From: an uncultured Candidatus Saccharibacteria bacterium
GTDB lineage: Bacteria > Patescibacteriota > Minisyncoccia > Phycocordibacterales > JAACPR01
Direction of reading: 5' to 3'
NCBI GenBank assembly: GCA_964507955.1
Contig: CAZDRR010000001.1
Span: forward strand, 344-64,343
Length of the DNA: 64,000 nucleotides
Below, one piece after another: positions 18,180-54,363 of this stretch; positions within the stretch are counted from its first letter, which is position 1, and each line of letters opens with the position of its first letter. The notes below the pieces were generated by a model. It was not told the DNA's origin. It searched no databases and saw only the letters and a list, made by a program, of their open reading frames with translations. The translations under genes and the position numbers were made by a program.

Positions 18180-18194
18180 AGTGTAAAATGTAGT

Positions 18195-36060: not shown

Positions 36061-37186
36061 GATTGTTACTATAAATATACATCCAGTCTAAGTCAAGTAA
36101 AAACAAGTCCATAGACTTGTAAACTGCGAATATATTTGGATAAACGTCCGCGCCACAAACAATTTTTTTATTAGATATAATCGAAATATCTTCGTAAGAA
36201 GCGTTATTGATTTTTTGTCGATTGTCTTCTATCGTTTTTTCAACATTAAAATTAATAATGGCGTTATTGAAAAACTTAGCTCTTTCGTTTTTTAAATTTT
36301 CCTCGTTTGTGCAAATTAAATTAACTGGAATACCAAGTAATTTTAAATCTTCCACAAATTTCTTATCGAAAGATCCTGAAACATAATTGACACATAGAAG
36401 ATTTTTAACGAAAGGAAAGTTTAAGTTAAATGGTTGCGCCGTAGTTACTTCTCCAGTATTGCGCGAAAGAATATCTACCATTATTTTATGAGTTTCCATA
36501 TCACAAAATAAATCAAGTCTAATATTGACATTTTTTAAAACTAATGGACAGGGTAAAGATGGAATAATATCTATACATTTATCTTTATATCTCAAACCAG
36601 CATAAATCGTTTTAAATGGAATGTTATTGTTAAATCCAAGCATCTCAAGAATAGTTTGAGCAATAATTTCGGGATTTATTTTGTTGATTTTTTTAGGGAA
36701 TTCATTTAATATAAAAGATGGATTTTCATCTTTTTCGCGAGGAGTTTCGATAAGAAATTGTTTCTTTTTATCTCCCCAATATGGTGCCGAACAATTCGCA
36801 AAAGATTCCCCGAAAATAGCCGTAATTGGTTTGTTATAAACACTCGCAATTTGTGCTGCCAAAGAATCTACTCCAACAAATGCCATGCTGTTCTTAATGA
36901 CATTTGATGTTTGTCTAAAATTTAACTTGCCTCTTAAATCCAAATCACATTGCACGGATGGGTCTTTTAGAGAACCAATTTGAACAACCTTTATATTTTC
37001 ACGTTGCAAAAATGGCAAACAGAGATTCAAAACTAAATTCCAATGGTCATAATCTCTTAAATTGTTTTTTTTAGAAGCGTAAAAACAAATATATTTATCA
37101 AAAACTATAGGATAGTAATGTTCCAAAATTTCTATGGAAGAAATTGGAACGCCTGTCGATAATGCATATCTCTCAATTAAATGCAT
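36053..37186 (-). CDS. GT9 (heptosyltransferase-like) C-terminal domain protein with about 230-aa extension
   Basis: N-terminal 150 aa carry GT9 C-domain motifs (YASKKNNLRDYDHW ~ GASxxxKRWP; GVDSLAAQIASVYNKPITAIFG ~ GNDSGPMHLAAALGxPxVALFG); no GT9 N-domain present in this ORF. Confidence 0.55.
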   Translation of the reverse strand: MHLIERYALSTGVPISSIEILEHYYPIVFDKYICFYASKKNNLRDYDHWNLVLNLCLPFLQRENIKVVQIGSLKDPSVQCDLDLRGKLNFRQTSNVIKNSMAFVGVDSLAAQIASVYNKPITAIFGESFANCSAPYWGDKKKQFLIETPREKDENPSFILNEFPKKINKINPEIIAQTILEMLGFNNNIPFKTIYAGLRYKDKCIDIIPSLPCPLVLKNVNIRLDLFCDMETHKIMVDILSRNTGEVTTAQPFNLNFPFVKNLLCVNYVSGSFDKKFVEDLKLLGIPVNLICTNEENLKNERAKFFNNAIINFNVEKTIEDNRQKINNASYEDISIISNKKIVCGADVYPNIFAVYKSMDLFLLDLDWMYIYSNNHE

Positions 37187-37190
37187 GTTC

Positions 37191-38897
37191 TTATTCTTTA
37201 ATGTTCAAAGTAATGATATCGTTGCCATGATGCAAGTAATCCAAATGTTTTTGAGTCCCAATATGAGGCAGAAAACAAATTTCGAAATATCCTTTATGAG
37301 ATCCTTGTCCTTCCATCATGAATAAATTTTCCATATGAGGATGAAAATCAAGCACTTTATAGATGAACCTATTGCCTAAAAGAATTTCTTTGAATTGGGG
37401 CTTTGTAGCGAAATAAATGTCTTTATCTGGATAAGCCTTTTTGATTGATGGCAGCAAAGCTGTAGATAAAAAGACATCTTCTTCGGATTCTGGCATCACG
37501 AACAAAATACGATCTTTCCTTTCTTTATCTAAAAATGAATCAAAAGGAATCACTTTTAATTCTTCGGAAGGCTTGGCATTTTTGAAACTTATTATGGGTT
37601 GCTTTACTGTTTCGAGAATTTTTCCTTTTAGATTCTCAACAATTTTCTCAACGCTAAATTCTGCTTCTATCCATTTCTTGCCATTATCAACTAATTCTTG
37701 TTTTCTCTCTTGATCCAATCCATAAACATACAACAATGTATTACATATCGAATTAGCGTCGGTAGAAGCTTTGATGAATTGGGATTGGGGTTCTCTATAT
37801 TCATGCCATTTTAAAGGAAGTCCCCCTTGATGCTCATAGCACGAATCTGTGCCACAAGAGTATTCTGTAACCAATGTAATTAAGCCTGCGGCTTTAGCTT
37901 CTTGAATTGGTAATTCTTGCCCTCCAGAAGTAAATGGATGACAATATACGTCCATACAATTATAAACTTCATTTAATTGTTCCTCGGTTAATCCAGCAAT
38001 CGCTGTTTTTGTTTTAAAGGTTTTGGCCGAATTGCAGAATGGGCAATTAATTTCCGCACCTTCAAAATTTTTAATAGAATATCGTCCGCAAGAACTACAA
38101 CGATAAGTTGCTAAAACATCATGCGGACTAATCTTCTTTTCTTTTAAATATCGAACGATATCCCAGCCAGCTTGATTATCTCCCCAATCCGTATGCAAAA
38201 TTAGTTTAGCTTCTGGAACTATTTGTTTGAATAATTTAAATCCATCTAGGAGATTTGGAACAGATTTTCTCAATTGATTTTTGAAAACAAAACCTATGAC
38301 AAAATTTTTATCAAGGCCGTGTCTTTGGCGAATTTCGCGTCTATTTTCAAGAGGTTTAAAATGATTTAAATCAATAGCCCCATGTATTGTTGAAATATTA
38401 TGAATGCCAAATTTTTTCATTTCCTGTGTGGCGAAATCAGCCCAAACAAGAAATTTGTCGCAAGACTTCGCCATAATCATAGATTCTTCCATCAATGGAA
38501 GGCTGTCTAACGTTGTCCAAATGATTTTATGGGTAGTGTTCCACCAAGGCTTTGCAACGAAGCCAGAGAAGGCCCAAATGTCTTCAATGCCTACGTAAAC
38601 ATCTGGTTTTACAATATCAATAATCTTGTCTATTTCGTAATAGCCATATGATGCAGCGCGGTTTTTAAACGGATCGTTTGCAATTGAAGCCAATACTTCT
38701 GGATTCTCTGTCATAGTTCCATAACAAGGCCAAGGAGTCTTAACATCCCTACCAAATGGAACGCCATTCGCTGCTTCATAAACCTCAATATCTGGATCAT
38801 TATGCAATGCGAGAAGAACATTCTTCATGTTCTTCCCGAATCCAGTAACCATTCTACTGTAATTAGAATGAAAAAGAACTTTGATTTTCTTGTTCAT
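37191..38897 (-). CDS. GT4-type glycosyltransferase with inserted zinc ribbon and C-terminal GT9 N-domain-like module
   Basis: GT-B C-domain E-x7-E region GGQELPIQEAKAAGLITL; inserted CSSCGRYS...CPFCNS; C-terminal 150 aa (ILFVMPESEEDVFLSTALLPSIKKAYPDKDIYF...) resemble the N-terminal domain of WaaC/WaaF-type GT9 enzymes. Confidence 0.6.
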   Translation of the reverse strand: MNKKIKVLFHSNYSRMVTGFGKNMKNVLLALHNDPDIEVYEAANGVPFGRDVKTPWPCYGTMTENPEVLASIANDPFKNRAASYGYYEIDKIIDIVKPDVYVGIEDIWAFSGFVAKPWWNTTHKIIWTTLDSLPLMEESMIMAKSCDKFLVWADFATQEMKKFGIHNISTIHGAIDLNHFKPLENRREIRQRHGLDKNFVIGFVFKNQLRKSVPNLLDGFKLFKQIVPEAKLILHTDWGDNQAGWDIVRYLKEKKISPHDVLATYRCSSCGRYSIKNFEGAEINCPFCNSAKTFKTKTAIAGLTEEQLNEVYNCMDVYCHPFTSGGQELPIQEAKAAGLITLVTEYSCGTDSCYEHQGGLPLKWHEYREPQSQFIKASTDANSICNTLLYVYGLDQERKQELVDNGKKWIEAEFSVEKIVENLKGKILETVKQPIISFKNAKPSEELKVIPFDSFLDKERKDRILFVMPESEEDVFLSTALLPSIKKAYPDKDIYFATKPQFKEILLGNRFIYKVLDFHPHMENLFMMEGQGSHKGYFEICFLPHIGTQKHLDYLHHGNDIITLNIKE

Positions 38898-41116: not shown

Positions 41117-41490
41117 AATTCAATAATTGCAGATTTTGTCTCAATTTTCTTTGGCGTATCTTTTAAGTGCTTTTTACCCTTATTTTTCTTCTTATAATCG
41201 TCAAAGAATTTACGTTTAACAGGATCTTCTCCAGTTGCAGATGCCCGTTTTTCAGAAAGTTCGGCAGATAAATCCATCATATCTCCAACAGTTCCTTTTT
41301 TGGAACCTGTTTTATTTACGAAATCTTTTGCAGAATGAGGATCAATAGTTGTATCTATTGAGGCATTTGGAATAGTAAAAATTCTTTTCCACGCAATACC
41401 ATCTTGGTAATACTCATGTTTGTCATTCATGCCTTGGAGAATTTCTTTGATTTCTCCAGTTTCTTCATTCTGGTAAAGGTAAAGTGGCAT
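41113..41490 (-). CDS. hypothetical basic protein
   Basis: 125 aa; Lys-rich C-terminus. Confidence 0.4.
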   Translation of the reverse strand: MPLYLYQNEETGEIKEILQGMNDKHEYYQDGIAWKRIFTIPNASIDTTIDPHSAKDFVNKTGSKKGTVGDMMDLSAELSEKRASATGEDPVKRKFFDDYKKKNKGKKHLKDTPKKIETKSAIIEF

Positions 41491-42569
41491 TATAGCATCT
41501 TTGTTAAAATTTGATCAACTGTATTTTTATAAGTAAATTGTTTCCCCATTATCAATCCGTTTGTATTGACGGTTTTGGCTTTTAATACCGCTCTTTCCAT
41601 ACCATCAATCAAAGAATCTTCGCTAAGAAGAAAGTAATTGCCCTGATTAAAAGGAAGACCTTTTCTGAAAAAGAAATTATCGTAGCACGGTTGTTCTCCG
41701 ACAGGCTCAACAAGAATTGAATTATCTTCTGTAGCCCAATCTTTATGAGAAGAACAATTAGAAACTACCGACCATTTTCCTAAAGCCGTCGTATTAAATG
41801 CCCCCATATTCCAACCCTCTCCATTCGAAAAACCAGATAAATCAATATCTATAGCGTTCATCAATTCAAGAACTTCGGAATTTGTATCGAGCGATGGAAG
41901 AAAATTGATATTTGTCCACTCTTTATCCCCAAGGGTTTCTTGTAAAATTTGTTTGTATTGTTCTGGAGTAAAAAAGGGATTATTGACAAGGCAAGTTAAT
42001 AAATATTTTGGGTCGTTGCCATATTTTTTCAACCAAGTTTGGATAATTTGTCGAGTATTTTTCCTGCGTTCAAATTTTCCAATTAATCCAAAATGTATAA
42101 CGTCATCGTTAAACTTTTTATCAATTACATGAAAGTCTTCGTCAAATCCTAAAGGAACATGGGAAACATTATCGCAGCCAGCATTTTTAAAGATATTTGC
42201 GGCAATGGAACTTGAAAAGAAAACATGTTCTTGACTTTTCACTAAAGCGATTTCTTCTTGGGTTGGAGAAGAAACTTCGTAATATGTATAAAGAAATTGT
42301 TTTGGAGCAATTCTGTTTTCAGAACCATTGATATGCCAATTTTTAAGAACAGGATACTTTTTGTCCAACGTTTTGAATCTATTCTGTCCAGATTCCTTAA
42401 TCCAATCAATGAATTCTTTTGGAGCTTTGTCGAAGGCTTGGAAATTAGCCTGATCGCCTACGGGGAAAAGGGAAACTTCGGCATTTCTTTTCCAAAGTTC
42501 CTTTAAAAAATTCATTGATACATTCCCTAAACTCAAGGAATTGATGGGGCCATTAAAGTGAAGTTTCAT
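41490..42569 (-). CDS. GT-B glycosyltransferase (GT1/GT4-like)
   Basis: HFGLIGKFERRKN and SGFSNGEGWNMGAFNTTALGKWSVVSN resemble GT-B C-domain sugar-donor binding motifs. Confidence 0.55.
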   Translation of the reverse strand: MKLHFNGPINSLSLGNVSMNFLKELWKRNAEVSLFPVGDQANFQAFDKAPKEFIDWIKESGQNRFKTLDKKYPVLKNWHINGSENRIAPKQFLYTYYEVSSPTQEEIALVKSQEHVFFSSSIAANIFKNAGCDNVSHVPLGFDEDFHVIDKKFNDDVIHFGLIGKFERRKNTRQIIQTWLKKYGNDPKYLLTCLVNNPFFTPEQYKQILQETLGDKEWTNINFLPSLDTNSEVLELMNAIDIDLSGFSNGEGWNMGAFNTTALGKWSVVSNCSSHKDWATEDNSILVEPVGEQPCYDNFFFRKGLPFNQGNYFLLSEDSLIDGMERAVLKAKTVNTNGLIMGKQFTYKNTVDQILTKML

Positions 42570-44513: not shown

Positions 44514-44541
44514 TTGACAAGAAAAATTTCCTTGTTATAAT
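44514..44541 (+). promoter_or_regulatory. consensus sigma-70-type promoter TTGACA-16-TATAAT directed toward the RNR gene
   Basis: TTGACA at 44514-44519 and TATAAT at 44536-44541; about 290 nt upstream of the RNR start. Confidence 0.55.
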
Positions 44542-44630
44542 TAAAAAGTCCAAGCTAGTTGCGACAAAGTTTCGCACTTGATCAATTCCGATTATTGGGC
44601 TAAGGTTACGACAAAATTAAAACGCCCAAT

Positions 44631-44835: not shown

Positions 44836-46839
44836 ATGATTGACGTGCGCGATTTACGACAAAATGAGGTTAGAGAGTATCATGAAAAATATTGCATTTC
44901 CGAACTACTTCCAGAAGATTTTTTAAACAAATACAAGAATAAACAGCCTAATTGGGGCTTTAATGGGTTGGGCTATATTGTTTACAAAAGGACTTACGCT
45001 AGAGAAATTGTCAAGGGATTGACGGAGGAATGGTGGGAAACAGTTGCTCGTTGCGTTAACGGTGCGCAAAAAATTGGTGCGAAATATTCTGTTGAAGAAG
45101 CCCAAAGATTATATGATCTAGTCTTCAATTTAAAATGTAATTTTGCAGGACGAATGCTTTGGCAGTTGAATACGTCAACTGTTGAAAGATTCGGACTTGC
45201 CAGTTTGCTCAATTGCTGGTATTGCGCGATGAGGGACATTGATGACTTTTGTTTTGTATTTGAACATTTGATGTTAGGTGGGGGAGTGGGTTTTTCGGTC
45301 AAAAGGGAAGACGTTCATGAACTGCCTAGAGTTAAAAAAGGAGTAAGGATTACTCATGAAAAAACCAAAGATGCTGATTTTATTGTCCCTGATTCTCGAC
45401 AAGGATGGGTTGAATTGTTAAGAAAAACCATGCAATCATTTTTTGTCACGGGTAAATCTTTTTCATATTCAACAATTCTTGTGCGTGGCGCTGGAGAAAA
45501 AATTGCTGGATTCGGCGGCACTGCGAGCGGCCCACAAATCTTGATAGACGGAATCCAACAAATCGCGAATATTATCGCGAAAAGAGAAGGTAAAAAATTG
45601 CGTTCAATAGACGTTTTAGATATTAACAATATTATTGGCGATATTGTTGTGGCGGGCAATGTCAGGAGAAGTGCGGAAATTGCAATTGGAGATGCGGATG
45701 ATTATTTATATTTAAGGGCTAAAAATTGGAGTAATGGCAATATTCCAAACTGGAGGAGTAAATCGAACAATAGTATTGAAGCAGATTCATTTGAACACAT
45801 CAGCGATGAACTTTGGGAAAATGGTTATGTTCTTGATCCAAAGACAGGATTAGCAAAAGGCGAAGCTTACGGCTTCATCAATTTACAACTTTGTAAACAA
45901 TATGGGCGCTTAGGGGAAGAAAGAAAGGAAAACTGCGAAGGAGTTAATCCATGTGCGGAAATCACTCTTGCGGATGGGGAAGCATGTAATTTGGCAGAAC
46001 TTTATTTAAACAATATTGATTCTAAAGAAGAATTAATTGAATGTGCGAAACTACTTTATAAAACCCAAAAAGCGGTTTGGAATCTACCAGCACTTTACGA
46101 GAAAACAGAAAAAATTGTTTCCAAGAACAGGCGTATTGGGCTTGGAGTAACAGGTGTATGCCAATCTCTTGATAAACTTGATTGGTTGGACGAATGTTAC
46201 GTTACTCTTAGAGAATATGATAAAGAATGGAGTGCGCAAAATGGACTTCCAGAGAGCATCAAATTAACAACAGTTAAGCCAAGCGGCACCCTTTCCTTAT
46301 TGGCTGGATCAACAGCAGGAGGACATGCGGGCTATTCTCGTTGGATGATCAGAAGAGTAAGAATGGCTTCAACAGACCCTCTTATCAAGTTGTGCAGAGA
46401 AGCTGGATATAAAACCGAATACCTGTTACGCTTTGATGGAACAGAAGATTATTCTACAACTGTTGTAGAATTTCCTTGTGAGTTTTCTCCAGAAACCGTA
46501 TTGGCGAAAGATTTATCGGCTGTGGACCAAATGAATTTGGTGAAAAAGTTACAGACAATTTGGGCTGACAATTCCGTATCGGTGACGATTTATTATCAAC
46601 CAGAAGAATTGGATTCCATCAAAGATTGGATGAAGGAAAATTATAAAAATAGCACGAAAACACTAAGCTTTTTAATGCATAACAAACACGGATTTAAACA
46701 AGCTCCATTAGAAGAAATTTCCGAAGAAACATATCGCAAGATGATTAAAAAAGTTAAACCAATTGAACAAATTTTTGATATTGGTTCTACTCTCATTGAA
46801 GGTTTGGAATGCGAAGGAGGAGCATGTCCATTGAGGTAA
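44836..46839 (+). CDS. ribonucleotide reductase, class II-like (B12-dependent type), monomeric size
   Basis: 667 aa; active-site VNPCAEITL...EACNLAELYLNN matching RNR NPC[GA]E...CNL.S motifs; C-terminal CEGGAC redox pair; no NrdB-like partner in window. Confidence 0.6.
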   Translation: MIDVRDLRQNEVREYHEKYCISELLPEDFLNKYKNKQPNWGFNGLGYIVYKRTYAREIVKGLTEEWWETVARCVNGAQKIGAKYSVEEAQRLYDLVFNLKCNFAGRMLWQLNTSTVERFGLASLLNCWYCAMRDIDDFCFVFEHLMLGGGVGFSVKREDVHELPRVKKGVRITHEKTKDADFIVPDSRQGWVELLRKTMQSFFVTGKSFSYSTILVRGAGEKIAGFGGTASGPQILIDGIQQIANIIAKREGKKLRSIDVLDINNIIGDIVVAGNVRRSAEIAIGDADDYLYLRAKNWSNGNIPNWRSKSNNSIEADSFEHISDELWENGYVLDPKTGLAKGEAYGFINLQLCKQYGRLGEERKENCEGVNPCAEITLADGEACNLAELYLNNIDSKEELIECAKLLYKTQKAVWNLPALYEKTEKIVSKNRRIGLGVTGVCQSLDKLDWLDECYVTLREYDKEWSAQNGLPESIKLTTVKPSGTLSLLAGSTAGGHAGYSRWMIRRVRMASTDPLIKLCREAGYKTEYLLRFDGTEDYSTTVVEFPCEFSPETVLAKDLSAVDQMNLVKKLQTIWADNSVSVTIYYQPEELDSIKDWMKENYKNSTKTLSFLMHNKHGFKQAPLEEISEETYRKMIKKVKPIEQIFDIGSTLIEGLECEGGACPLR

Positions 46840-46997
46840 CAAAGTGTATCTGTCACAATATCTCTTTTCAGGAGATTCTCAAAAAGAATAAACCCCTTCC
46901 TCTTTTACAGGAGGCGGGGGTTTGTGCTAATAAATGTAAATTATGCGTTCCCTTTTTGGAAAAAATAATTTTGAAAAAAGAAGAGAAAAATGAATAA
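46824..46997 (+). CDS. small Bfd-like [2Fe-2S]-binding domain protein (putative)
   Basis: 57 aa from in-frame ATG 46824; CICH...CANKCKLC gives the C-x-C...C-x2-C pattern of BFD-like domains; overlaps the RNR 3' end. Confidence 0.35.
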   Translation: MSIEVTKCICHNISFQEILKKNKPLPLLQEAGVCANKCKLCVPFLEKIILKKEEKNE

Positions 46998-47003
46998 TCT
47001 GAT

Positions 47004-47852
47004 GTGGACGTATTATTCATTTCAGATTTTAATTTAGAACATAACTCTGGCGGTGCGCAGGTAAGCAATGACGCTATTATTCGTGCAGGACGAGAACGAG
47101 GATTGTCTATTACAGAATTTAATCATGATACAAGTTCTTTAAAATTAATGTATCGGTATGATTTGTTGATTAGTTCCAATTTGGAAGTTTTGAGTCATCG
47201 TTCTGATTATATATTTGATAGGATTATTAATCACCCAAACCATATACGATTAGAACACGATTCCTGTAGTTATCTGCCTGCGGATAAACGTCGTAAACTG
47301 TTTTCTTCGACAAAGAAAAATTTCTTTTTATCGCAGTTTCATCTGGATTTCTTTAAAGAAGCATATGGTGATTATTTCGAGAATGTAGAAATAAACTTTG
47401 ATCCTATTGATACTAAAATTTTTTATCCAAGTTCCAATAAAAAGCGAAAGTATGATATTGTTTATTGCGGATTCTTGCATGAGCTAAAAGGAGCATATAA
47501 TCTCATTCATACTGCGGTTTTCAATCCCCAAAGGAAATTTGATGTTTTTGGATGGAGCGACAATGAGAGATTGATAAAGGAGTTGCAACAATATCCAAAT
47601 ATAGAATTACATCAACCCGTCCCTTTAAATGAAGTCGGAGAGATTTATAGAAATGCAAAATTTATTTTCCATGATCCAGTTGTTAACGAACCATTTTGTA
47701 GAATGGTTGGTGAGGCACTGATTTGTGGTTGCGAATTGATGGGCAACGGAGATAAAATTGGCAGTTATCAGGAATTTTACAAATTAGGGAGTGACGAATT
47801 CCGCGCACAAACAGAGAAAGCACAACACACGTTTTGGGATAAAATTTTATGA
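47004..47852 (+). CDS. GT-B glycosyltransferase (GT4-like)
   Basis: C-domain EPFCRMVGEALICGCELMGNGD matches the GT4 E-x7-E donor-binding region; GTG start per track. Confidence 0.6.
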   Translation: MDVLFISDFNLEHNSGGAQVSNDAIIRAGRERGLSITEFNHDTSSLKLMYRYDLLISSNLEVLSHRSDYIFDRIINHPNHIRLEHDSCSYLPADKRRKLFSSTKKNFFLSQFHLDFFKEAYGDYFENVEINFDPIDTKIFYPSSNKKRKYDIVYCGFLHELKGAYNLIHTAVFNPQRKFDVFGWSDNERLIKELQQYPNIELHQPVPLNEVGEIYRNAKFIFHDPVVNEPFCRMVGEALICGCELMGNGDKIGSYQEFYKLGSDEFRAQTEKAQHTFWDKIL

Positions 47853-48580
47853 AATCAGTTTCCGCAATTATTAATTGTTTTCAACGCCCACACGCTTTAA
47901 GAAGTCAATTTGAAGCGATAGAATCTCAATCTATCAAGCCGAAAGAGATTATGATTTGGCAAAATGCCCCAATGAATGGAGCGCAATTTGATTATTCTTT
48001 TTTAAATAAATCAATTATTAGCTTAAATAATTATAATTATGGAGTATGGGCTCGATTCGCATTTGCTTTAAATTCTCATTCTGATTATATTTGTATATTT
48101 GATGACGATACTATTCCAAACGAAAATTGGTTTGAAAATTGTTTAGAACAAATTGAACAAAATGGGAATGGTCTTTATGGAACTATTGGAGTAACATTTA
48201 ACGATTTAGATTATCGTTCTTATATTCGTCATGGTTGGGCGAATCCAAATAATAAGGTTGAGCAAGTAGATATTGTAGGACATTCTTGGTTCTTCCATAG
48301 AGATTTATTATCTGCATTTTGGAGAGAAACAGATTTGCCACTTTCCTATTTGTGTGGTGAAGACATGCATTTTTCATATTCAATTCAGAAATATCTTGGA
48401 TTAAATACTTTTGTGCCTCCTCATCCGATAGAAGATTTGTCTTTATGGGGTAGCCGACCCCAATCAGCGATGGAATTAGGCGTTGATAATAATGCTATTT
48501 CTGTGAATTTTCATTCACAAATTTTTGGAGAATCTTTAAAGCATTATCATAAAAAAGGCTTTAAATTATTAAATTTATGA
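47849..48580 (+). CDS. GT-A fold glycosyltransferase (GT2-like)
   Basis: N-terminal Rossmann-like SAIINCFQRP, DxD-type motif FDDDTI; 243 aa. Confidence 0.6.
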   Translation: MKSVSAIINCFQRPHALRSQFEAIESQSIKPKEIMIWQNAPMNGAQFDYSFLNKSIISLNNYNYGVWARFAFALNSHSDYICIFDDDTIPNENWFENCLEQIEQNGNGLYGTIGVTFNDLDYRSYIRHGWANPNNKVEQVDIVGHSWFFHRDLLSAFWRETDLPLSYLCGEDMHFSYSIQKYLGLNTFVPPHPIEDLSLWGSRPQSAMELGVDNNAISVNFHSQIFGESLKHYHKKGFKLLNL

Positions 48581-49584
48581 AAAAAATACTTGTAATATAT
48601 GGGACTCGCCCAGAATATTTAAAAGTTAAAAATTTCTTGAAAAAAAATGACGTTTTTGACATAAAAAGTTTACATATTAAACAACACTCTAATATCATTA
48701 ATTTTGGCGATCCCGATTATTTAATAGAAATTGAAAATAAAAATATAGATAGGTTAAACAATATTTTTAGTGAAATTTTTTTAAAATTACCAGAAATTAT
48801 TAAAGACTTTGATTATATTGTTATTCAGGGAGATACGGCATCTGTTATGGCTTCTGCTGTTTGCGCTTTTAATTTGAAGAAAAAAATTATTTATATTGAA
48901 TCAGGATTAAGAACTTGGGATTTGGATAATCCTTTTCCAGAAGAGGGATATAGACAAATGGTTGCGCGTATTTCATATATAAATTTTTGTCCGACAGAAC
49001 GTTCTAATTTAAATTTAATTAAAGAAAATATTAACCAAAATTGTTTTGCTGTAGGCAATACGTCTTTAGATAATTTATTGAATTTAAAAGAAAAATGCTC
49101 TTATCAGGACAAGGTTTTAATTACTTTACATAGAAATGAAAATTTAAATATTTTATCAGAATGGTTGTCCATAATAGATCAATTTGCAAGAGAACATCCA
49201 GAATTAATGTTTATTTTTCCAGCGCATTTAAATCCTATTGTGCAAACAGCGGCGTCTAAAACAAAATATTTAAAAATAATTAAACCTTTAGAACACGAAG
49301 ATCTTTTAGATATTTTAAAAGATGCAAAATTCGTTATTACTGATTCTGGAGGAATCCAAGAAGAGGCTTGTTTTTTAAATAAAAAAATTATTGTATGTCG
49401 TAAAACAACAGAACGTCCAGAAGGCATTTCGACTGGACATATAAAAATTGCAGAAGATCCTTCTAAATTGAAAAATCTATTAGAAGAAGTAAATACGAAT
49501 TTTATAATAGATGGATCATGCCCATATGGAGACGGGCAATCTACCCAGCGAATTTTACGAATATTAGCAAATGAAAGACTTTAA
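48577..49584 (+). CDS. UDP-N-acetylglucosamine 2-epimerase family enzyme (WecB/NeuC/CapG-like)
   Basis: Signature motifs GTRPE (N-terminus), VIQGDT, DSGGIQEE, TERPE. Confidence 0.8.
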   Translation: MKKILVIYGTRPEYLKVKNFLKKNDVFDIKSLHIKQHSNIINFGDPDYLIEIENKNIDRLNNIFSEIFLKLPEIIKDFDYIVIQGDTASVMASAVCAFNLKKKIIYIESGLRTWDLDNPFPEEGYRQMVARISYINFCPTERSNLNLIKENINQNCFAVGNTSLDNLLNLKEKCSYQDKVLITLHRNENLNILSEWLSIIDQFAREHPELMFIFPAHLNPIVQTAASKTKYLKIIKPLEHEDLLDILKDAKFVITDSGGIQEEACFLNKKIIVCRKTTERPEGISTGHIKIAEDPSKLKNLLEEVNTNFIIDGSCPYGDGQSTQRILRILANERL

Positions 49585-50263
49585 ACAAGAATTATTAATA
49601 ATGCATGATAGACTTATAAAAGGAGAGTCGTTTGCATTTTCTAAATATGCGGATGGGGAATGGGCCGCGATGTTAAATTTACCTTTAGATAATAGAGAAT
49701 TTAAAAACGAAAATTCTTTCGAAACTTCTCGCAAAGAGTTAATTGAATCTTTTAGATTTAAACACCCAAACTATTTTGTTGGAATTTCTTGTGAGTGTTG
49801 TCAAGGAGAAAACCATTTTCGAATGAAAGAATTTTCAACACAACCTATTGAAAATTTAACTTATGCGAATTTATTTGTTAATAGCAATTATCCGATTTAT
49901 AAACAATTATTTCTTCCAGAATATGAAAAAAGAGATGTTCATTTAGTGTGCAATAAATTATCGAAAATAGAAAATTTACCTTTTGTGCCAGAAGAAACAT
50001 ATTTTGTTGGATATAATGCATGGGTAGAAGACCACGATCTTATTAAAAAAATACAAGATAAGAATTTATCGGATAAATTATTTTTATTTTGTTGCGGGCC
50101 ATTCGGTAATTTATTAGCCCACCAACTATTTTCGTCAAATCAAAAAAATATATATTTAGACATTGGATCAACATTAAATCCGTGGTTACAATCAGAAGGA
50201 TTTAAAAGAGATTATTATTCTAATGGATTCTACGCTGGTCGAAAATGTTTTTGGAGGGAATAA
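49571..50263 (+). CDS. hypothetical protein, possible GT-D/DUF1792-like glycosyltransferase
   Basis: 230 aa; N-terminal FSKYADGEWAAM (DxE-type metal motif); weak. Confidence 0.3.
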   Translation: MKDFKQELLIMHDRLIKGESFAFSKYADGEWAAMLNLPLDNREFKNENSFETSRKELIESFRFKHPNYFVGISCECCQGENHFRMKEFSTQPIENLTYANLFVNSNYPIYKQLFLPEYEKRDVHLVCNKLSKIENLPFVPEETYFVGYNAWVEDHDLIKKIQDKNLSDKLFLFCCGPFGNLLAHQLFSSNQKNIYLDIGSTLNPWLQSEGFKRDYYSNGFYAGRKCFWRE

Positions 50264-50265
50264 CA

Positions 50266-51117
50266 ATGATACAAAAAAATAAACGATACTTAATTACTGG
50301 AGGAACTGGATTTTTGGGAGAGGCTTTAATTGCTCGACTACAAAAATTCGGATGCACAATAAGAATTTTGGCAAGAAATGAGGGAAAGCTAATAGCTTTA
50401 AAACAAAAATATCCAAATTTAGAAATTCATACAGGAGATATTTCAGATCCTTTTGAAGTAAAACAAGCAATGAAGGATGTCGATGGAGTTTTCCATCTAG
50501 CAGCTTCAAAACACGTTGGATTAGCAGAAACATTTGTTAGAGAATGCGTTAAGTCTAATACTATAGGATCATTAAATATATTAGAAAATTCATTGAATCA
50601 AAAATTAGATTTTGTTATCGGAATTTCGACAGATAAAGCCGCCCAAGTAGCAGGGGTTTATGGAGCTTCAAAACTTTTAATGGAGCGTTTATTTAAACAG
50701 TTTGAGGAATTAAATCCTCTTTGTAAATATAGAATTGTTCGATATGGTAACGTTTTATATTCTACAGGTTCGGTTTTGTGTAAATGGAAAGAATTAATTC
50801 AATCAGGACAACCATGTGCAGTTTCAGATTTAAATGCTACTAGATTTTATTGGACAGTAGAACAGGCAATTGAGTTAATTTTTGAATGTTTATCCAAAGC
50901 AGAAAATGCTTCCCCTTTTGTTCCTCAAATGAAGTCTATTAGAATCAAAGATTTATTAGAAGCAATGTATGAAAAATATGGCAATGGATTTCAGTTAAAT
51001 CCAATTGTTTATGGATTACAACAAGGGGAAAATTTACACGAAAGGATTTTGGAGGATGGACCTTATTCCAACGAAGTTCCCTTATATAGCAAGAAAGAAA
51101 TTTTAGAACTGATATGA
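50266..51117 (+). CDS. UDP-GlcNAc 4,6-dehydratase, PseB/CapE/FlaA1-like SDR
   Basis: TGGTGFLG NAD motif; ISTDKAAQVAGVYGASK (YxxxK); RYGNVLYSTGSVLCKWKELIQSGQPCAVSDLNATRF closely parallels PseB RYGNVMASRGSVIPLFIEQIKANQPLTITDPNMTRF; start moved to ATG 50266 with GGAGGG SD. Confidence 0.8.
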   Translation: MIQKNKRYLITGGTGFLGEALIARLQKFGCTIRILARNEGKLIALKQKYPNLEIHTGDISDPFEVKQAMKDVDGVFHLAASKHVGLAETFVRECVKSNTIGSLNILENSLNQKLDFVIGISTDKAAQVAGVYGASKLLMERLFKQFEELNPLCKYRIVRYGNVLYSTGSVLCKWKELIQSGQPCAVSDLNATRFYWTVEQAIELIFECLSKAENASPFVPQMKSIRIKDLLEAMYEKYGNGFQLNPIVYGLQQGENLHERILEDGPYSNEVPLYSKKEILELI

Positions 51118-51788
51118 AAGAACTAACTTTATTAATTGGTAGTTGCGATAACTATGCTTCTTTATGGCCTATTTGCGCAGATTTAATTCAAAAATATTGG
51201 GAGATTGATTGCGATAAAATTATAGTTGCAGAAAATTATTCACAATCATGTCCACAAGAATTTAAGTTAATTAATGCTGGGTGCAGAACTTGGACGGAAA
51301 GAATGTTATATGCATTAGATTCTGTTAAAACTCCGTATGTTTTTTTTATATTAGAAGATTATTTTTTAAGCGAAAGAGTTTCTAAGGAAATGATTGATCA
51401 ATTTTTATTTTTTCTGAAAATTCACGAAGCTAATAAAATAGCTTTAACAACAATTCCAGAAGGATTTTATAAAACATCGAAATTTTATGAAAATTTATAT
51501 GATAATATTTATAAAATGGATGACGATAGCGATTACTTAACAAGTGTTCAACCTGCAATTTGGAAGACTTCTTTTTTAAAAGAATTATTACAACAAGATA
51601 ATTGGAATCCATGGGAATTTGAAATTATTGGTAGCGCAAGGATAAAAGGGAAGGATAATAAAATTTTTATCAAGAAAAAAAATGACCCAATTTATTTTAA
51701 TGCAGTTAGAAAAGGAGGTTATTTTTCAGAAGGTTATTTTGAATTTATAGAGAAAGAATTGAATAAAGAAGTTGACAAGAATCATTGA
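51114..51788 (+). CDS. hypothetical protein in sugar-nucleotide operon
   Basis: 224-aa coupled ORF; no recognisable motif. Confidence 0.4.
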   Translation: MKELTLLIGSCDNYASLWPICADLIQKYWEIDCDKIIVAENYSQSCPQEFKLINAGCRTWTERMLYALDSVKTPYVFFILEDYFLSERVSKEMIDQFLFFLKIHEANKIALTTIPEGFYKTSKFYENLYDNIYKMDDDSDYLTSVQPAIWKTSFLKELLQQDNWNPWEFEIIGSARIKGKDNKIFIKKKNDPIYFNAVRKGGYFSEGYFEFIEKELNKEVDKNH

Positions 51789-52879
51789 ATACGCATAATA
51801 TGAACGCGAATATGAAAAAAGTGCTAATAACAGGAGTCACAGGAATGGACGGGAGCCTTATGGCAGATTATTTATTAAAGCATACAGATAATTTTATTGT
51901 TGGAGGTATTCGTAGATTGAGTGTGCCGAATCATAAAAATATAGAACATCTCATTGGGCATCCTAGATTTAAACTTATTGATTTAGATATTACAGATGCG
52001 ATTAATGTTGCGTTAGTGATTAAAGAAGAACGACCAGATTATTTTATTAATTTTGCGGCGAATTCTTTTGTAGGCAATAGTTGGACGATGCCAGTTAATC
52101 ATTTTACGACGAATTGTTTATCGGTGCTTTATCAATTAGAAGCTATTCGCAAATATGCTCCAAACTGTCATTATTATAATGCAGGCTCTTCTGAGGAGTT
52201 TGGTGATGTTGTAACTGTTCCTCAGTCAGAAAGTCATCCTTTACGCCCACGAAGTCCTTATGGGGCAGCTAAGGCTTCTTCAAGACATCTTGTGAAGGTT
52301 TATAGAGAATCTTATAATCTTTACGCTATTCAGGGTTGGTTATTTAACCACGAAGGAATTCGCAGGGGAGAAGAATTTGTCACCCGCAAAATTACCAAAG
52401 GCGTTGCAAGAATTAAACATGCCATTGAAAATAAACTTCCATTTGAACCTCTTGAACTCGGTAATCTTGATTCAACAAGGGATTGGAGCGATGCAGAAGA
52501 TTTTGTAGATGGTATATGGAAAATGCTCAATCAAGAATTTCCAAAAGAATATGTTCTATCGTCTAATGAGACCCATTCTATTAAAGAATTTGTAGAATTA
52601 GCTTTTTTATCGGCTGGGATTCATGGTGTTTGGGTTGGAGAAAAATTAGATACATTATATCTTCTTCCAAATGCTGACGCGGAATATTGTGAATTTGCAT
52701 CAATTAAATTAGTAAAAATTAATGAAAAATTTTATCGCCCAGCAGAAGTAGAAATTCTTTATGGGGATTCAAGTAAAGCACGGACAGAATTAAATTGGCA
52801 ACCAAAAATTTCTTTTAAAAACCTTGTAAAAAAAATGGTTGAAAACGATATAAAAGAATATGCCAAAACCCATTCGTAA
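51785..52879 (+). CDS. gmd: GDP-mannose 4,6-dehydratase
   Basis: ITGVTGMDGSLMADYLL, SPYGAAK, LFNHEGIRRGEEFVTRKIT, YFRPAEVE and the C-terminus align closely with E. coli Gmd. Confidence 0.92.
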   Translation: MNTHNMNANMKKVLITGVTGMDGSLMADYLLKHTDNFIVGGIRRLSVPNHKNIEHLIGHPRFKLIDLDITDAINVALVIKEERPDYFINFAANSFVGNSWTMPVNHFTTNCLSVLYQLEAIRKYAPNCHYYNAGSSEEFGDVVTVPQSESHPLRPRSPYGAAKASSRHLVKVYRESYNLYAIQGWLFNHEGIRRGEEFVTRKITKGVARIKHAIENKLPFEPLELGNLDSTRDWSDAEDFVDGIWKMLNQEFPKEYVLSSNETHSIKEFVELAFLSAGIHGVWVGEKLDTLYLLPNADAEYCEFASIKLVKINEKFYRPAEVEILYGDSSKARTELNWQPKISFKNLVKKMVENDIKEYAKTHS

Positions 52880-53210
52880 ATTTTCTAAAGAAAGAAAAAT
52901 TTTCATTCAGAGAATGCTTCAAGGCCGTCCAAAGAATTTCGCTTTGGAAATGAAAACGGCTTATGAGCTTTTCGAAATGCACGAATTTGACTTGAATTTT
53001 TTCGAGAAAGTTTCTCCTCCTCCATTTAAAATCAATAGCCTTTTATGGTTTAAAACCAGAGATGGTTTAAAGTTCTTGGCTAAGAAAAAAATGGAAATGA
53101 AGTTCCAAGTGCCTGAATATGAAAAAGTTGTTGAAATTGGGGAGAAATGCGGAGAAGATACATTGACTGAAATCAAACCACGAACAATCAGAAAATTTTT
53201 AAATGGCTAG
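52860..53210 (+). CDS. hypothetical protein
   Basis: 116-aa ORF. Confidence 0.4.
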   Translation: MPKPIRKFSKERKIFIQRMLQGRPKNFALEMKTAYELFEMHEFDLNFFEKVSPPPFKINSLLWFKTRDGLKFLAKKKMEMKFQVPEYEKVVEIGEKCGEDTLTEIKPRTIRKFLNG

Positions 53211-54363
53211 AACAAAAAATAATCCAACAACTCCAGAACAAGATAAAAAAGAAAAGCCTGATGATCAAGCTTTTGCTTCGTCTTTCTTTAATTCTAATAA
53301 AGAATTCCACTATAATCTTGTGGAAGAAGCGGAAGATTTTACCGTATCAAGCGGCTCATTAAAATTTGACTATATTCTTTCTGGAGGTTTTAAAAAAGGA
53401 CTATTCCGTTTTACAGGCGTAACAGAAGGCGGCAAAACTTCATGTGCTTTGACAGTTTTGAAAAACATGCTGGATACCGTTCCTAATTCCAAAGGGATTT
53501 ATGTCAAGGCGGAAGGACGTTTGCGTAAAGAGATTCAGGAGAGATCTGGTATTAAATTTGTTTTCTCTCCCGAAGAATGGGAAGTAGGAACTTGTCTTGT
53601 TTTCGAATGTAATGTTTTCGAAACAGTATTTGATTTTTTTAGGGGTTTGTTAAAAAATAATCCTAAGAAAATTCGTTTCGGTTTTATTGTTGATTCTGCT
53701 GATGGATTAATTCCAAAAGGCGATTTGGAAAAATCTTCGGAAGAGGCTGGGAAAGTTGCGGGTGGAGCTTTATTAAGTTCTGACTTCTTCAAGAGAGTTT
53801 CTTTGGGAATGTCTAAATTCGGGCATTTAGGAATCTTTTTATCTCAAGTTCGGGCTAGAGTCGAAGTGAATCAATACGCTCCAAAAGATCAAAACAACAG
53901 GACTTCTGCGAGTGGCGGCAACGCCCATTTGCATTATCCAGATTGGATTATCGAATTCAAGAGACCGAATAAGGACGACTTTATTGCAAAAAATCCAGAA
54001 GCACCTTTATCTTTAGATAATCCTCCTATTGGTCATAAGGCAAAAATTCTTATCTGCAAATCTCCTAATGAAACTACTGGTATGATTTTGGATTATCCAA
54101 TCAAACATGGTAGAACTGGAGGTCGTTCTGTTTGGATCGAAAGAGAAATTATTGATCTATTATTAATGTGGGAATTTTTCACTAAGAAAGGATCATGGTA
54201 TTCTTTTGACGAAGAGATTCAAGCTCACTGTCAAGAATTCGGTTATGATTTGTCGAACGCCATTCAAGGTATTCCAAACTTATACAAACTCTTGGAAGAA
54301 GACGCAAAATTAGCAGAAATTTTGAAGAACTTTGTAAAAGTTAACTGTTTAGTAATGAAATGA
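53203..54363 (+). CDS. RecA/UvsX-family recombinase
   Basis: Walker A GVTEGGKTS, Walker B FIVDSADGL, GGNAHLHY region comparable to RecA GGNALKFY. Confidence 0.75.
   Translation: MARTKNNPTTPEQDKKEKPDDQAFASSFFNSNKEFHYNLVEEAEDFTVSSGSLKFDYILSGGFKKGLFRFTGVTEGGKTSCALTVLKNMLDTVPNSKGIYVKAEGRLRKEIQERSGIKFVFSPEEWEVGTCLVFECNVFETVFDFFRGLLKNNPKKIRFGFIVDSADGLIPKGDLEKSSEEAGKVAGGALLSSDFFKRVSLGMSKFGHLGIFLSQVRARVEVNQYAPKDQNNRTSASGGNAHLHYPDWIIEFKRPNKDDFIAKNPEAPLSLDNPPIGHKAKILICKSPNETTGMILDYPIKHGRTGGRSVWIEREIIDLLLMWEFFTKKGSWYSFDEEIQAHCQEFGYDLSNAIQGIPNLYKLLEEDAKLAEILKNFVKVNCLVMK

Follow-up and report, generated by a model that had tools for sequence, protein, structure and literature searches.

Why would a phage region carry three enzymes that activate sugars and none that would finish them? 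At 48577-52879 of the window, meaning here the whole stretch of DNA analysed, genes for a WecB-type epimerase, a short SDR and a GDP-mannose 4,6-dehydratase (GMD) have two unannotated ORFs between them. The window covers 64 kb of a 138,977-bp source contig, and every absence given below is an absence within those 64 kb. The five ORFs were confirmed; all lie on the plus strand, and their stops and starts overlap or abut. In the cassette as a whole, four glycosyltransferase (GT) genes are interleaved with the three sugar-nucleotide enzyme genes:

47004..47852, plus strand: GT-B (GT1/GT4)-like glycosyltransferase, 282 aa (Glycos_transf_1 24.4 bits, E 2.4e-5, slightly below gathering score)
47849..48580, plus strand: GT2 (GT-A) glycosyltransferase, island core gene (Glycos_transf_2 E 7.3e-9)
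48577..49584, plus strand: non-hydrolysing UDP-GlcNAc 2-epimerase, WecB type, core gene (Epimerase_2 223 bits; predicted product UDP-ManNAc)
49571..50263, plus strand: GT-D-fold (DUF1792-like) glycosyltransferase, core gene (predicted fold, invariant DxE motif)
50245..51117, plus strand: short Polysacc_synt_2 SDR (283-290 aa), predicted UDP-HexNAc 4,6-dehydratase, accessory (Polysacc_synt_2 203 bits)
51114..51788, plus strand: GT-A-fold glycosyltransferase without a Pfam family, accessory gene (DxD-like motif; directly after the short SDR gene)
51785..52879, plus strand: GMD, accessory (GDP_Man_Dehyd 338 bits)

The preliminary description had named a WecB-like epimerase, a CapE/PseB-like dehydratase and a GMD, and all three assignments hold on profile scores and solved relatives. 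The epimerase passes the NCBIfam wecB model (TIGR00236 223.3, cut-off 210.15). For the short SDR the best NCBIfam models, PseB (172.8, cut-off 407.75) and FnlA (134.2, cut-off 730), both fall below cut-off; of solved proteins, CapE (3e-41) and FlaA1/PseB (1.6e-37) match it best. It carries S-T-D-K-A-A and Y-G-A-S-K motifs, the latter of the Tyr type seen in FlaA1/PseB and not with CapE's Met. Its homologues number more than 7000, are about 284 aa long, and show 65-76% identity among the matches listed. The GMD scores 309.5 against the gmd model TIGR01472, below the cut-off of 415; every one of its best solved relatives is a GMD (about 1e-74), its S-S-E, Y-x3-K and R-R-G motifs align with theirs, and translation probably begins at ATG 51800 or 51812. 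Catalytic residues are retained in both dehydratases. That both score below their NCBIfam equivalog cut-offs is a caveat to the island reading developed below.

The absence of reductase, aminotransferase and synthase steps, also claimed earlier, is borne out throughout the 64 kb. Fcl-like, RmlD-like, GalE-like, other SDR, DegT, WbqC and PIG-L proteins from related loci, used as queries against the six-frame translation, matched nowhere but at the two SDR genes named above; Pfam scans covering the remaining window ORFs outside the structural block gave no partner enzymes, and the suggested look for downstream fcl/rmd/pseC-like genes, carried out on the window, found none. Nor did the window yield a priming transferase, flippase, polymerase or multi-pass membrane protein, or a hydrophobic segment in any of its GTs. 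Relatives sometimes have an Fcl/GMER partner or DegT-type tailoring genes, none of which lies in this phage's window; reductases could lie in the approximately 75 kb of the genome outside it.

Missing activities might have resided in the two unannotated ORFs, in which methyltransferase, acetyltransferase or reductase folds were to be looked for. Profile searches gave no family match for 51114-51788, nor any Pfam, NCBIfam or PHROG match for 49571-50263. Both have GT folds with metal-binding motifs, and of the folds of tailoring enzymes (Rossmann SDR, PLP, acetyltransferase, SAM-methyltransferase) they show none. The AF2 model of 49571..50263 (pLDDT 94.5) has significant Foldseek matches in the PDB to 4PHR, 4PFX and 5V4A only (E 1e-7 to 2e-6, TM 0.62), that is, to the DUF1792/GT-D domain of streptococcal dGT1; the PDB titles give streptococci as the source of the solved GT-D structures. 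Besides the fold, the phage protein shares with this domain an N-terminal D-x-E metal motif (D28-G29-E30, invariant in its family), solubility and an adjoining GT2-type GT-A partner. It differs in being a stand-alone 230-aa protein of about 15% identity, with a Pfam GT-D score of 14 bits against a threshold of 27, and in belonging to a subfamily that appears from sequence searches to be virus-restricted: among 185,579 species genomes there were only three matches, all MAGs, one of them a mis-binned phage contig. Pfam GT-D is matched at E <= 0.1 by 32 of 35 homologues, all sub-threshold. The streptococcal enzymes take part in cytoplasmic O-glycosylation of a serine-rich adhesin. The region is thus very likely a glycan-assembly island in which both unannotated ORFs encode GTs.

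These are not the only transferases. At least seven GT genes lie within the window, four adjacent in the island and three elsewhere:

36053-37186, minus strand: GT-B-like gene, GT9-like, one of two further GT-B-like genes (36053..38897)
37191-38897, minus strand: GT-B-like gene, family f8, GT1/GT4, the second of the two
41490..42569, minus strand: GT1/GT4-family glycosyltransferase, family f6, conserved in 36 loci

The 41490..42569 protein has no Pfam match itself and matches family f6 at 1.7e-120, whose representative matches Glycos_transf_1 at 3.6e-13; PF00534 is likewise present in the L006 orthologue of 47004..47852. In the GT2 family of 47849..48580, D85-D86-D87 is invariant and the family profile matches GT2 structures weakly.

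Comparison across about 90 related phage loci, with family counts taken over 86 including this window, clarifies which of these genes belong together. The GT-D family is present in 85 loci, GT2 in 81, WecB in 53 (this window included) and the GT-A family in 36, and 43 loci share 64 extended SDRs. Gene order is GT2-WecB-GT-D in 29 loci and GT2-GT-D in 24, and family f8 stands directly 5' of GT2-(WecB)-GT-D in five (L055, L057, L071, L072, L074). The island divides into a conserved core, GT2-(WecB)-GT-D, and a hypervariable accessory segment after it: 3' of GT-D, loci variously hold FkbM methyltransferases, HAD-NTP_transferase fusions, a carbamoyltransferase, a transaldolase, a WavE-like gene or SDRs. 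Among the 52 other WecB loci an extended SDR is absent within 10 kb in 22 and a short SDR occurs in only two, so WecB is not a CapG/PseG-type partner; conversely, L079, L081 and L082 have the short SDR without WecB. These three and L003 have it without GMD, and six loci have GMD with no other SDR within 10 kb. Since the short SDR occurs without GMD, neither SDR partners the other; they are independent accessory modules. The GT-A family is found in about 30 loci that have no short SDR and is therefore not specific for that enzyme's product.

Two readings take the locus as a pathway cut short. In one, a truncated CapE-CapF-CapG or Pse/Leg pathway stands beside a GDP-6-deoxyhexose pathway, and the unannotated ORFs supply the missing tailoring steps. 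The alternation of known sugar enzymes with unannotated ORFs overlapping at stop and start codons fits this, as do the short SDR's closest solved relatives, and the window shares with the Cap (UDP-L-FucNAc) and PseB-PseC-PseH-PseG-PseI (pseudaminic acid) pathways a first enzyme of the Polysacc_synt_2 family, with S-T-D-K and Y/M-x3-K motifs, and a WecB-superfamily enzyme. Against it stand the GT folds of both ORFs, the near absence of loci with both WecB and short SDR, and the score of the WecB-type gene against the NeuC/hydrolysing-epimerase model (57.5, cut-off 235.9): it scores as a non-hydrolysing UDP-GlcNAc epimerase, evolutionarily uncoupled from the short SDR. The window has no CapF, PseC, PseH or PseI, and the short SDR is some 45 residues shorter than PseB or CapE. 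This reading is largely refuted, and we give it very little credence; with it falls the proposed analogy to the Cap, Pse and Leg routes. In the other, the orphan dehydratases are decaying, functionless remnants of pathways once complete, as complete versions in relatives might suggest: L033 and L050 pair GMD with an Fcl-like protein (238 and 410 bits, respectively), and in L091 the short SDR heads a full pathway of SDR, DegT, WbqC and PIG-L. Both dehydratase ORFs, however, are intact and tightly packed in the gene array with catalytic residues kept, the short SDR shares 71-76% identity with the nearest orthologues among the matches listed, and the arrangements recur, the orphan short SDR in L003, L006, L079, L081, L082 and one further related locus, and partnerless GMD in six further loci. 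Decay is accordingly most improbable.

A glycan-assembly island fits the region better than a monosaccharide pathway cut short, and 48577-52879 is best explained as the variable half of that island. Its conserved core comprises the GT1-like gene, GT2, WecB and GT-D. The analysis establishes gene identities, folds and motifs, the division into core and variable parts, the mutual independence of the three sugar enzymes and the lack of tailoring genes in the window; what we infer of substrates, of the fate of the keto-sugars and of the acceptor would run as follows. WecB would need no partner to convert host UDP-GlcNAc to UDP-ManNAc in one step. One accessory module would be the short SDR with the GT-A directly after it, a second the GMD, fed by host GDP-mannose. 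On each branch the phage would contribute just the committed, entry-point reaction. In ATCV-1, likewise, the UDP-rhamnose pathway is represented by its first, limiting enzyme (UGD) alone (PMC4691112). The 4-keto-6-deoxy products might be reduced by the dehydratase itself, as the bifunctional PBCV-1 GMD makes GDP-D-rhamnose alone (PMC4691112), finished by host reductases, or transferred as such; the keto-sugar 2-acetamido-2,6-dideoxy-xylo-hexos-4-ulose occurs in several bacterial polysaccharides (PMC3210612, PMC12392001). Each of these three routes has a precedent. Host completion and direct keto-sugar use survive from the earlier interpretation, and novel activities of the unannotated ORFs do not. 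The four adjacent soluble GTs and the three others in the window could then assemble an oligosaccharide in the cytoplasm, with donor and acceptor specificities as their folds suggest.

When the island acts may be judged from its surroundings:

44514..44541, plus strand: sigma-70-type promoter consensus (TTGACA, 16 nt, TG-TATAAT), preceding the long plus-strand gene array that contains the island
44836..46839, plus strand: adenosylcobalamin-dependent ribonucleoside-triphosphate reductase (RTPR), upstream flank (TIGR02505 368.7 bits, cut-off 340)
52860..54363, plus strand: 116-aa ORF and UvsX/RecA recombinase, downstream flank, outside the island (RecA and PHROG UvsX matches)

The promoter is the sole 12-of-12 match in 44000-55000, and promoter-like sites in general occur no more often than they do after shuffling; no convincing terminator was found inside the island. 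In L003-L006 and one further related locus, the island has an RNR gene (RTPR or class I) immediately up- or downstream, and the 116-aa ORF accompanies RecA in L006 and one further related locus. GC content is 0.285-0.30 at 48-52 kb and 0.31-0.45 in the remaining window. Because the island shares its sigma-70-headed array with RNR, RecA, DnaB, primase and DnaE, early or middle expression is suggested, rather than co-expression with late virion genes, a point against the virion acceptor favoured below.

What would such a glycan be attached to? A virion protein is the likeliest single acceptor, a choice we make tentatively. Capsid and tail-tube C-termini are glycosylated in mycobacteriophages (Freeman 2023, as relayed in PMC12619734). 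In this phage the product of 16996-18123, putatively a tail protein from gene order, has a T/S-rich C-terminal tail, and its homologues' C-termini are variable and often S/T/P-rich; it is a weak candidate, since the T/S-rich tail is short and overlaps a conserved G-G-x-x-x-T motif. Somewhat less probable is a host envelope glycan (LPS O-antigen/core, capsule or teichoic acid) remodelled in infection, whether for superinfection block or to prevent progeny from adsorbing to debris, with host lipid-linked intermediates as acceptors and export by host flippase and polymerase. The classic genes of O-antigen and capsule synthesis include those for WecB, GMD and PseB/CapE-like dehydratases; the WavE-like, heptose-type (HAD-NTP_transferase, transaldolase) and carbamoyl/methyl decorating genes of relatives typify surface polysaccharides, and the hypervariability is like that of O-antigen loci. 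Placement suggesting early or middle expression fits action on the host, and the GT-A ORF has TarP, TarS and RmlT, all teichoic-acid enzymes, among its structural neighbours. Yet the window holds no priming phosphoglycosyl transferase, Wzx, Wzy, ABC exporter or membrane protein; seven phage GTs imply a whole new glycan, not a simple serotype-converting decoration; the GT-D subfamily is nearly absent from cellular genomes, unexpected if its substrate were a common bacterial intermediate; and the characterised GT-D enzymes, to our knowledge, all act on a protein.

Oligosaccharide hypermodification of the phage's own DNA, with the sugar-nucleotide enzymes supplying unusual donors, is improbable in our estimate. 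Precedents are T4, RB69 and the phage GT clusters of Pyle et al.; phage clusters put mono- to trisaccharides (hexose, HexNAc, heptose) on 5hmC with GTs related to LPS and teichoic-acid enzymes (bioRxiv 10.1101/2023.12.21.572611), and phage-encoded sugar-nucleotide synthesis is documented for DNA arabinosylation (PMC13326640). Like these clusters (T4 a-gt/b-gt with gp42, RB69/DLP3 arabinosylation, MT-5mYOX-GT), the island has soluble GTs, here among nucleotide-metabolism and replication genes (dUTPase, dNMP kinase, RTPR, UvsX/RecA), much as T4 b-gt and gene 42 adjoin uvsX. There is, however, no visible source of the required reactive base: a T4 gp42 query found no thymidylate-synthase homologue in the window or the roughly 90 related loci, those loci hold no b-gt-like protein and no ThyA-like protein near their islands, the window ORFs scanned have no Thymidylat_synt, TET/JBP, 5mYOX or C5-methyltransferase match, and the Pfam lists precomputed for relatives contain only ThyX and an N6/N4 methylase. 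Seven GTs, and the methyl and carbamoyl decoration in relatives, also go beyond known DNA glycans. Some other acceptor is unlikely, if less so than DNA.

Among systems already described, the mycobacteriophage clusters (Che8, Corndog, Myrna; Freeman et al. 2023), so far as the secondary account describes them, share phage-encoded soluble GT sets that vary between related phages, with methyltransferases in some relatives, and place cytoplasmic O-glycans on capsid and tail-tube C-termini, where the island's acceptor is putative; they have no sequence relationship to the island, whose core is GT2-WecB-GT-D and which encodes nucleotide-sugar enzymes of its own and sits in the replication module. 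In giant viruses (PBCV-1 GMD/GMER, ATCV-1 UGD only, Megavirus Mg534-536) dehydratases and 2-epimerase-like genes likewise adjoin GT genes, but these are eukaryotic viruses with other GT families, and the Megavirus 2-epimerase comes after a dehydratase and a reductase of the same pathway; WecB here, by contrast, is independent of the short SDR. We consider it rather probable that this locus is a phage-specific, soluble glycan-assembly island that uses entry-point enzymes only, with a virion protein as the favoured acceptor. As both unannotated ORFs would be transferases and not missing steps, the phage would build a variable glycan of its own.

The stretch 48577-52879 is made up of five plus-strand ORFs whose stops and starts overlap or abut, exactly at the coordinates given in the preliminary description, and two glycosyltransferase genes of the same island lie directly upstream, outside the finding proper. 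The functions given throughout are predictions, drawn from sequences, modelled structures and the surroundings of each gene.

Genes of the island and the matches obtained for them
47004-47852, plus strand: GT1-like glycosyltransferase, directly upstream of the flagged region
47849-48580, plus strand: GT2 glycosyltransferase, directly upstream of the flagged region
48577-49584, plus strand: WecB (TIGR00236 score 223.3, cut-off 210.15)
49571-50263, plus strand: 230-aa ORF without a family match
50245-51117, plus strand: Polysacc_synt_2 short SDR (PseB model TIGR03589 172.8, cut-off 407.75)
51114-51788, plus strand: 224-aa ORF without a family match
51785-52879, plus strand: probable GMD (Pfam GDP_Man_Dehyd, 338 bits over its full length; gmd model TIGR01472 309.5, under the cut-off of 415)

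The preliminary description had envisaged partial sugar pathways that host enzymes complete, that the two ORFs without a family match complete as novel tailoring enzymes, or whose keto intermediates are used directly. On the second option, predicted folds and metal motifs argue instead that both encode glycosyltransferases. PDB sequence searches with either ORF, single-sequence or profile, gave marginal matches only, and the folds were therefore predicted. For the ORF at 49571-50263 there are 729 homologues, some with a weak annotation as PF08759 (GT-D); one-by-one scans of 35 homologues gave 32 matches to this Pfam family at E <= 0.1 (best 7e-6), all below threshold, and the ORF itself scores 14.2 bits without reaching the gathering cut-off of 27, so that it is best regarded as a remote subfamily. 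Its AlphaFold (AF2) model, built on the family alignment, has a pLDDT of 94.5, and the only significant Foldseek matches in the PDB are 4PHR, 4PFX and 5V4A, all DUF1792/GT-D structures (E 1.2e-7 to 2.2e-6, TM 0.62-0.63; the next-ranked match stands at E 0.07). In the sequence alignment D28-G29-E30 is invariant across 35 homologues and corresponds to the D-x-E motif that binds Mn2+ and defines the GT-D family (PMC9804384). The model and motif together identify this protein as a predicted glycosyltransferase of GT-D fold.

The subfamily is practically virus-restricted: a search of 185,579 species genomes gave three matches, of which one falls on a phage contig placed in the wrong bin. The proteins encoded by L089 (VFHP01000009.1), a 93.7-kb contig binned as SAR202, match those of the IMG/VR phage contig L037 at 92-100% identity, and L089 is therefore probably phage DNA in a bacterial bin. 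L088 (JBAXPN010000001.1), a 432-kb contig binned as Falkowbacteria that may be cell or huge phage, carries GT2, GT-D, WecB-like and FkbM genes. The GT-D enzymes characterized so far, to our knowledge, all act in the cytoplasm, where they elongate the O-glycan on a serine-rich adhesin. A full-text literature search for DUF1792 with phage, as represented by titles and abstracts, returned no phage-encoded GT-D. The idea that GT2 and GT-D are a split version of streptococcal dGT1, in which GT-D is fused to the GT-A domain CgT, was rejected: the match of the GT2 profile to CgT reaches only E 0.009 and is not stronger than its matches to other GT2 enzymes.

The ORF at 51114-51788 has 38 homologues and no Pfam family. 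Its predicted model (pLDDT 94.1) has a nucleotide-diphospho-sugar transferase fold, with Foldseek matches to TarP, TarS, SpsA, B4GALNT1 and RmlT and also to IspD and KdsB; on comparison it lies closer to the glycosyltransferases than to the nucleotidyltransferases, and the G-x-G-x-R motif of the latter is absent. D82 is invariant in the family within an L-[D/E]-D-Y motif of D-x-D type that follows a beta strand, and in a profile search with the family these residues line up with the DDD motif of B4GALNT1 (E 0.23). The protein is thus predicted to be a GT-A-fold glycosyltransferase of an unclassified family. Taken together, fold and motif evidence indicates that neither ORF encodes a reductase, aminotransferase, acetyltransferase or methyltransferase.

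Among the sugar-nucleotide enzymes, WecB passes its equivalog cut-off and scores 57.5 on the hydrolyzing NeuC model (cut-off 235.9); the simple reading would have it convert UDP-GlcNAc to UDP-ManNAc, for which a partner is unnecessary. The best solved relatives of the short SDR are CapE (3e-41), FlaA1/PseB (1.6e-37) and other UDP-GlcNAc 4,6-dehydratases, and its catalytic motifs S-T-D-K-A-A and Y-G-A-S-K align with CapE and FlaA1, the latter motif being of the tyrosine type found in PseB and not the methionine type of CapE. It falls below the equivalog cut-offs for both PseB and FnlA-CapE (TIGR04130, 134.2 against 730), at a length of 283-290 aa against ~324-337 model positions in PseB/FnlA. 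Truncation as an explanation for this shortness was ruled out: homologues below 1e-20 number more than 7000, and among the 120 listed nearly all are equally short (282-288 aa), 64-76% identical, and annotated by JGI as UDP-GlcNAc 4,6-dehydratase. GMD has as its eleven best PDB matches GMDs or a GMD-like structural-genomics target (3e-74 to 6e-64), aligned end to end, against a far weaker match to heptose 4,6-dehydratase (1e-25); alignment to solved GMDs shows that the S-S-E, Y-x3-K and R-R-G motifs are retained. The true start is probably ATG 51800 or 51812.

Partner genes were sought throughout the 64-kb window, which is part of a 138,977-bp contig. Fcl-like, RmlD-like, GalE-like, DegT, WbqC and PIG-L queries against its six-frame translation matched only the two known SDR genes. 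The 64 kb hold no GMER (Fcl) or RMD partner for GMD and no further SDR to serve as a CapF/WbjC reductase, while the DegT search and Pfam scans revealed no aminotransferase (PseC/LegC), N-acetyltransferase, hydrolyzing epimerase or NeuB-type synthase. The lack of fcl-, rmd- and pseC-like genes suspected in the preliminary description is borne out across the window.

Related loci offer another view of the same enzymes. We compared the neighborhoods of GT-D and GT-A homologues in assemblies (L003-L007 and one further locus) and in 80 IMG/VR loci, using simple longest-ORF calling and single-linkage clusters as families; GT1-like and GT2 genes fell into one cluster and were split by best match. The 85 GT-D-bearing loci contain 68 distinct GT-D sequences.

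Occurrence among the 86 loci (several IMG/VR loci are near-duplicates, so counts are of loci and not of independent lineages)
GT-D: 85 of 86 loci
GT2: 81 of 86 loci
WecB: 53 of 86 loci
GT-A family: 36 of 86 loci
Extended SDRs: 64 genes in 43 of 86 loci

Gene order is GT2-WecB-GT-D in 29 loci and GT2-GT-D in 24. Downstream of GT-D the content varies by locus and includes FkbM methyltransferases, HAD-NTP_transferase fusions (up to three copies), carbamoyltransferase, transaldolase, WavE-like proteins, PfkB kinase and diverse SDRs. An extended SDR is missing within 10 kb in 22 of the 52 other WecB loci, and only two of the 52 have the short SDR, which in turn occurs without WecB in three loci (L079, L081, L082). 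WecB is a core gene independent of the short SDR, and this uncoupling argues that it is not a late enzyme of CapG, WbjD or PseG type; with the short SDR in only those two WecB loci and no CapF/WbjC in the window, the analogy to CapE-CapF-CapG and Pse routes drawn in the earlier note is not supported. The short SDR and GMD are likewise mutually independent, the former occurring without GMD in four loci (L003, L079, L081, L082) and GMD without the short SDR in a dozen. The possibility that the short SDR is the reductase partner of GMD was rejected on these four loci and on its retention of the dehydratase D-K pair. GMD has an Fcl/GMER-like neighbor in L033 (238 bits) and in L050 (410 bits), matches to such a gene are weaker in L004 and L008, and six loci have GMD with no other SDR within 10 kb. 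At L091 the short SDR is the first gene of a complete module that also includes another SDR, a DegT aminotransferase, WbqC and PIG-L; such partners do not accompany it in the window, L003, L006 or one further assembly locus. Partner genes are therefore optional in the phage gene pool.

Seven of the related loci (L005, L011, L013, L015, L018, L057, L071) have HAD-NTP_transferase fusions, transaldolase, carbamoyltransferase and FkbM methyltransferases downstream of GT-D, and in many of them an unannotated 149-aa gene precedes GMD. This gene set may represent a route to heptose or another unusual NDP-sugar. L003 contains inteins in the class I RNR large subunit (1239-4595, LAGLIDADG) and in ThyX (17827-19548, HNH), and L005 (GCA_046464045.1, 103,757 bp) encodes a tubulin-family protein at 1-643, a few kb from its island.

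Further glycosyltransferases and a promoter lie outside the island.

Window features outside the island
36053-37186, minus strand: GT-B-like gene with a weak GT9 match
37191-38897, minus strand: GT-B-like gene of family f8, other members of which carry Glycos_transf_1 (1e-12 to 1e-13)
41490-42569, minus strand: GT-B-like gene of family f6, other members of which carry Glycos_transf_1 (1e-12 to 1e-13)
44514-44541, plus strand: extended -10 sigma-70 promoter (TTGACA, 16 nt, TG-TATAAT), a perfect match

In several related phages, members of families f8 and f6 immediately precede GT2-(WecB)-GT-D, which extends the glycosylation system beyond the flagged region; with the island enzymes, the three minus-strand genes bring the window to at least seven glycosyltransferase genes. 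The encoded glycosyltransferases all lack hydrophobic segments, and neither a multi-pass membrane protein nor a priming transferase, flippase or polymerase was found in the window.

The window belongs to an uncultured tailed phage and encodes PhoH, terminase, a portal-sized protein, a 2073-aa tape-measure-sized protein and two sigma-like proteins, as well as dUTPase, dNMP kinase, RTPR, UvsX/RecA, DnaB, primase and a DnaE-type polymerase, assignments supported by synteny with the assembly locus L006. A nucleotide search of island DNA against 50,697 phage records gave zero matches, and the terminase is 23-26% identical to those of Bacillus, Staphylococcus and Clostridium phages; this is a phage without a cultured relative. 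The promoter at 44514-44541 lies upstream of the RTPR gene, in an intergenic region of 585 bp between divergent genes, and heads a plus-strand array that runs from RTPR through the island to the DnaE gene. Promoter and terminator scans within the island are at chance level, the sole exception being this consensus promoter upstream of the RNR gene. GC content over the variable part of the island (48001-52000) is 0.285-0.30, the lowest of the 64 kb, against 0.31-0.45 elsewhere; it reaches 0.448 at 12001-14000, over the capsid gene at 12885-14021 and the cement-like gene at 12271-12870, and is 0.31-0.39 in the remaining window. Scans of the whole window for tRNAs and Rfam families found none, and 38897-39563 and 62545-64000 contain very short ORFs only. 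Two small proteins (4028-4711, plus strand; 42553-43146, minus strand) have weak sigma-70 region-2 matches, and the phage may thus have its own sigma factors. Just upstream of the terminase gene, 5769-6710 (plus strand) encodes a 313-aa protein with an N-terminal C2H2 zinc finger and a weak ERCC4-nuclease match.

We propose that the phage would tap host pools of UDP-GlcNAc and GDP-mannose and supply only the committed step of three branches: 2-epimerization, UDP-HexNAc 4,6-dehydration and GDP-Man 4,6-dehydration. The resulting keto-sugars could be reduced by a bifunctional dehydratase or, as the preliminary description also suggested, finished by the host or transferred directly, and the soluble glycosyltransferases would then assemble an oligosaccharide. 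Each possibility for the keto-sugars has a counterpart: PBCV-1 GMD is bifunctional, makes GDP-D-rhamnose by itself and limits its pathway under feedback control, and ATCV-1 encodes a single UDP-rhamnose pathway enzyme, the first, and depends on its host for the rest (PMC4691112); the 4-keto product of UDP-GlcNAc dehydration is a polysaccharide residue in Pseudoalteromonas rubra, Vibrio ordalii, Flavobacterium columnare and pneumococcal types 5 and 38 (PMC3210612, PMC12392001).

As acceptor we favor a virion protein. The soluble character of the glycosyltransferases, the virus-restricted GT-D subfamily and the protein acceptor of the characterized GT-D enzymes fit this reading, as does the failure to find lipid-carrier or export machinery in the window, which also weighs against the host envelope. 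In favor of an envelope acceptor, genes of these kinds are usual in loci for surface polysaccharides. Mycobacteriophages (Freeman 2023, as cited in PMC12619734) provide a precedent for virion protein glycosylation. A possible candidate for O-glycosylation is the product of 16996-18123 (plus strand), a putative major tail protein by gene order only, whose T/S-rich C-terminus reads AGTTTTTAGVFMSGSSTTTFA; its homologues have a common core and variable C-terminal tails, often S/T/P-rich (e.g. P0171, P0185, P0164). PHROG, Pfam and PDB searches gave no names for the structural proteins, this candidate included. Against a virion acceptor, the island shares its orientation with replication genes and lies downstream of a consensus sigma-70 promoter.

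Such a genomic position would fit phage DNA as the acceptor. The b-gt gene for DNA beta-glucosyltransferase and gene 42 for dCMP hydroxymethylase adjoin uvsX in T4 (L093, the T4 segment, 23570-26219), and at 47004-54363 of the window the island likewise abuts UvsX/RecA, a positional parallel only, as no gp42-like or b-gt-like protein was found; glycosyltransferase clusters of phages that glycosylate their DNA are documented (bioRxiv 10.1101/2023.12.21.572611; PMC13326640). A T4 gp42 query, however, finds no ThyA homologue in the window or ~90 loci, and TET/JBP and C5-methyltransferase families are absent from those window ORFs that were scanned with Pfam. That the GT2-(WecB)-GT-D core and its hypervariable accessory genes form a widespread virus-only system placing strain-specific oligosaccharides on phage DNA strikes us as improbable. 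Were it so, the glycans would contain ManNAc and 6-deoxy or 4-keto sugars, with chemistry outside the ThyA-homologue and MT/5mYOX routes. Less radically, though still new, the system could create O-antigen-like "serotypes" on the virions of aquatic phages, keto-sugar residues included.

Virus-encoded glycosylation is well documented in giant viruses and a few mycobacteriophages, while the "LPS-like" genes of most environmental phages are annotated singly and left unexplained. The kind of system described here, virus-encoded glycan synthesis, is already known; the variant appears undescribed, with its GT2-(WecB)-GT-D core, virus-restricted GT-D subfamily, unclassified GT-A family and O-antigen-like variable tail with recurrent orphan dehydratases. 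Two hypothetical proteins become predicted glycosyltransferases, and a core is defined in ~85 related loci, 80 of them IMG/VR viral contigs, with sugar-modifying genes shuffled as in an O-antigen locus. Recurrence of "orphan" 4,6-dehydratases in phages makes their role testable, whether bifunctional, host-dependent or feeding keto-sugars into glycans. If the acceptor is the virion, this would be a common route to surface variation among aquatic phages; a DNA acceptor would make it a hypermodification of a new class.
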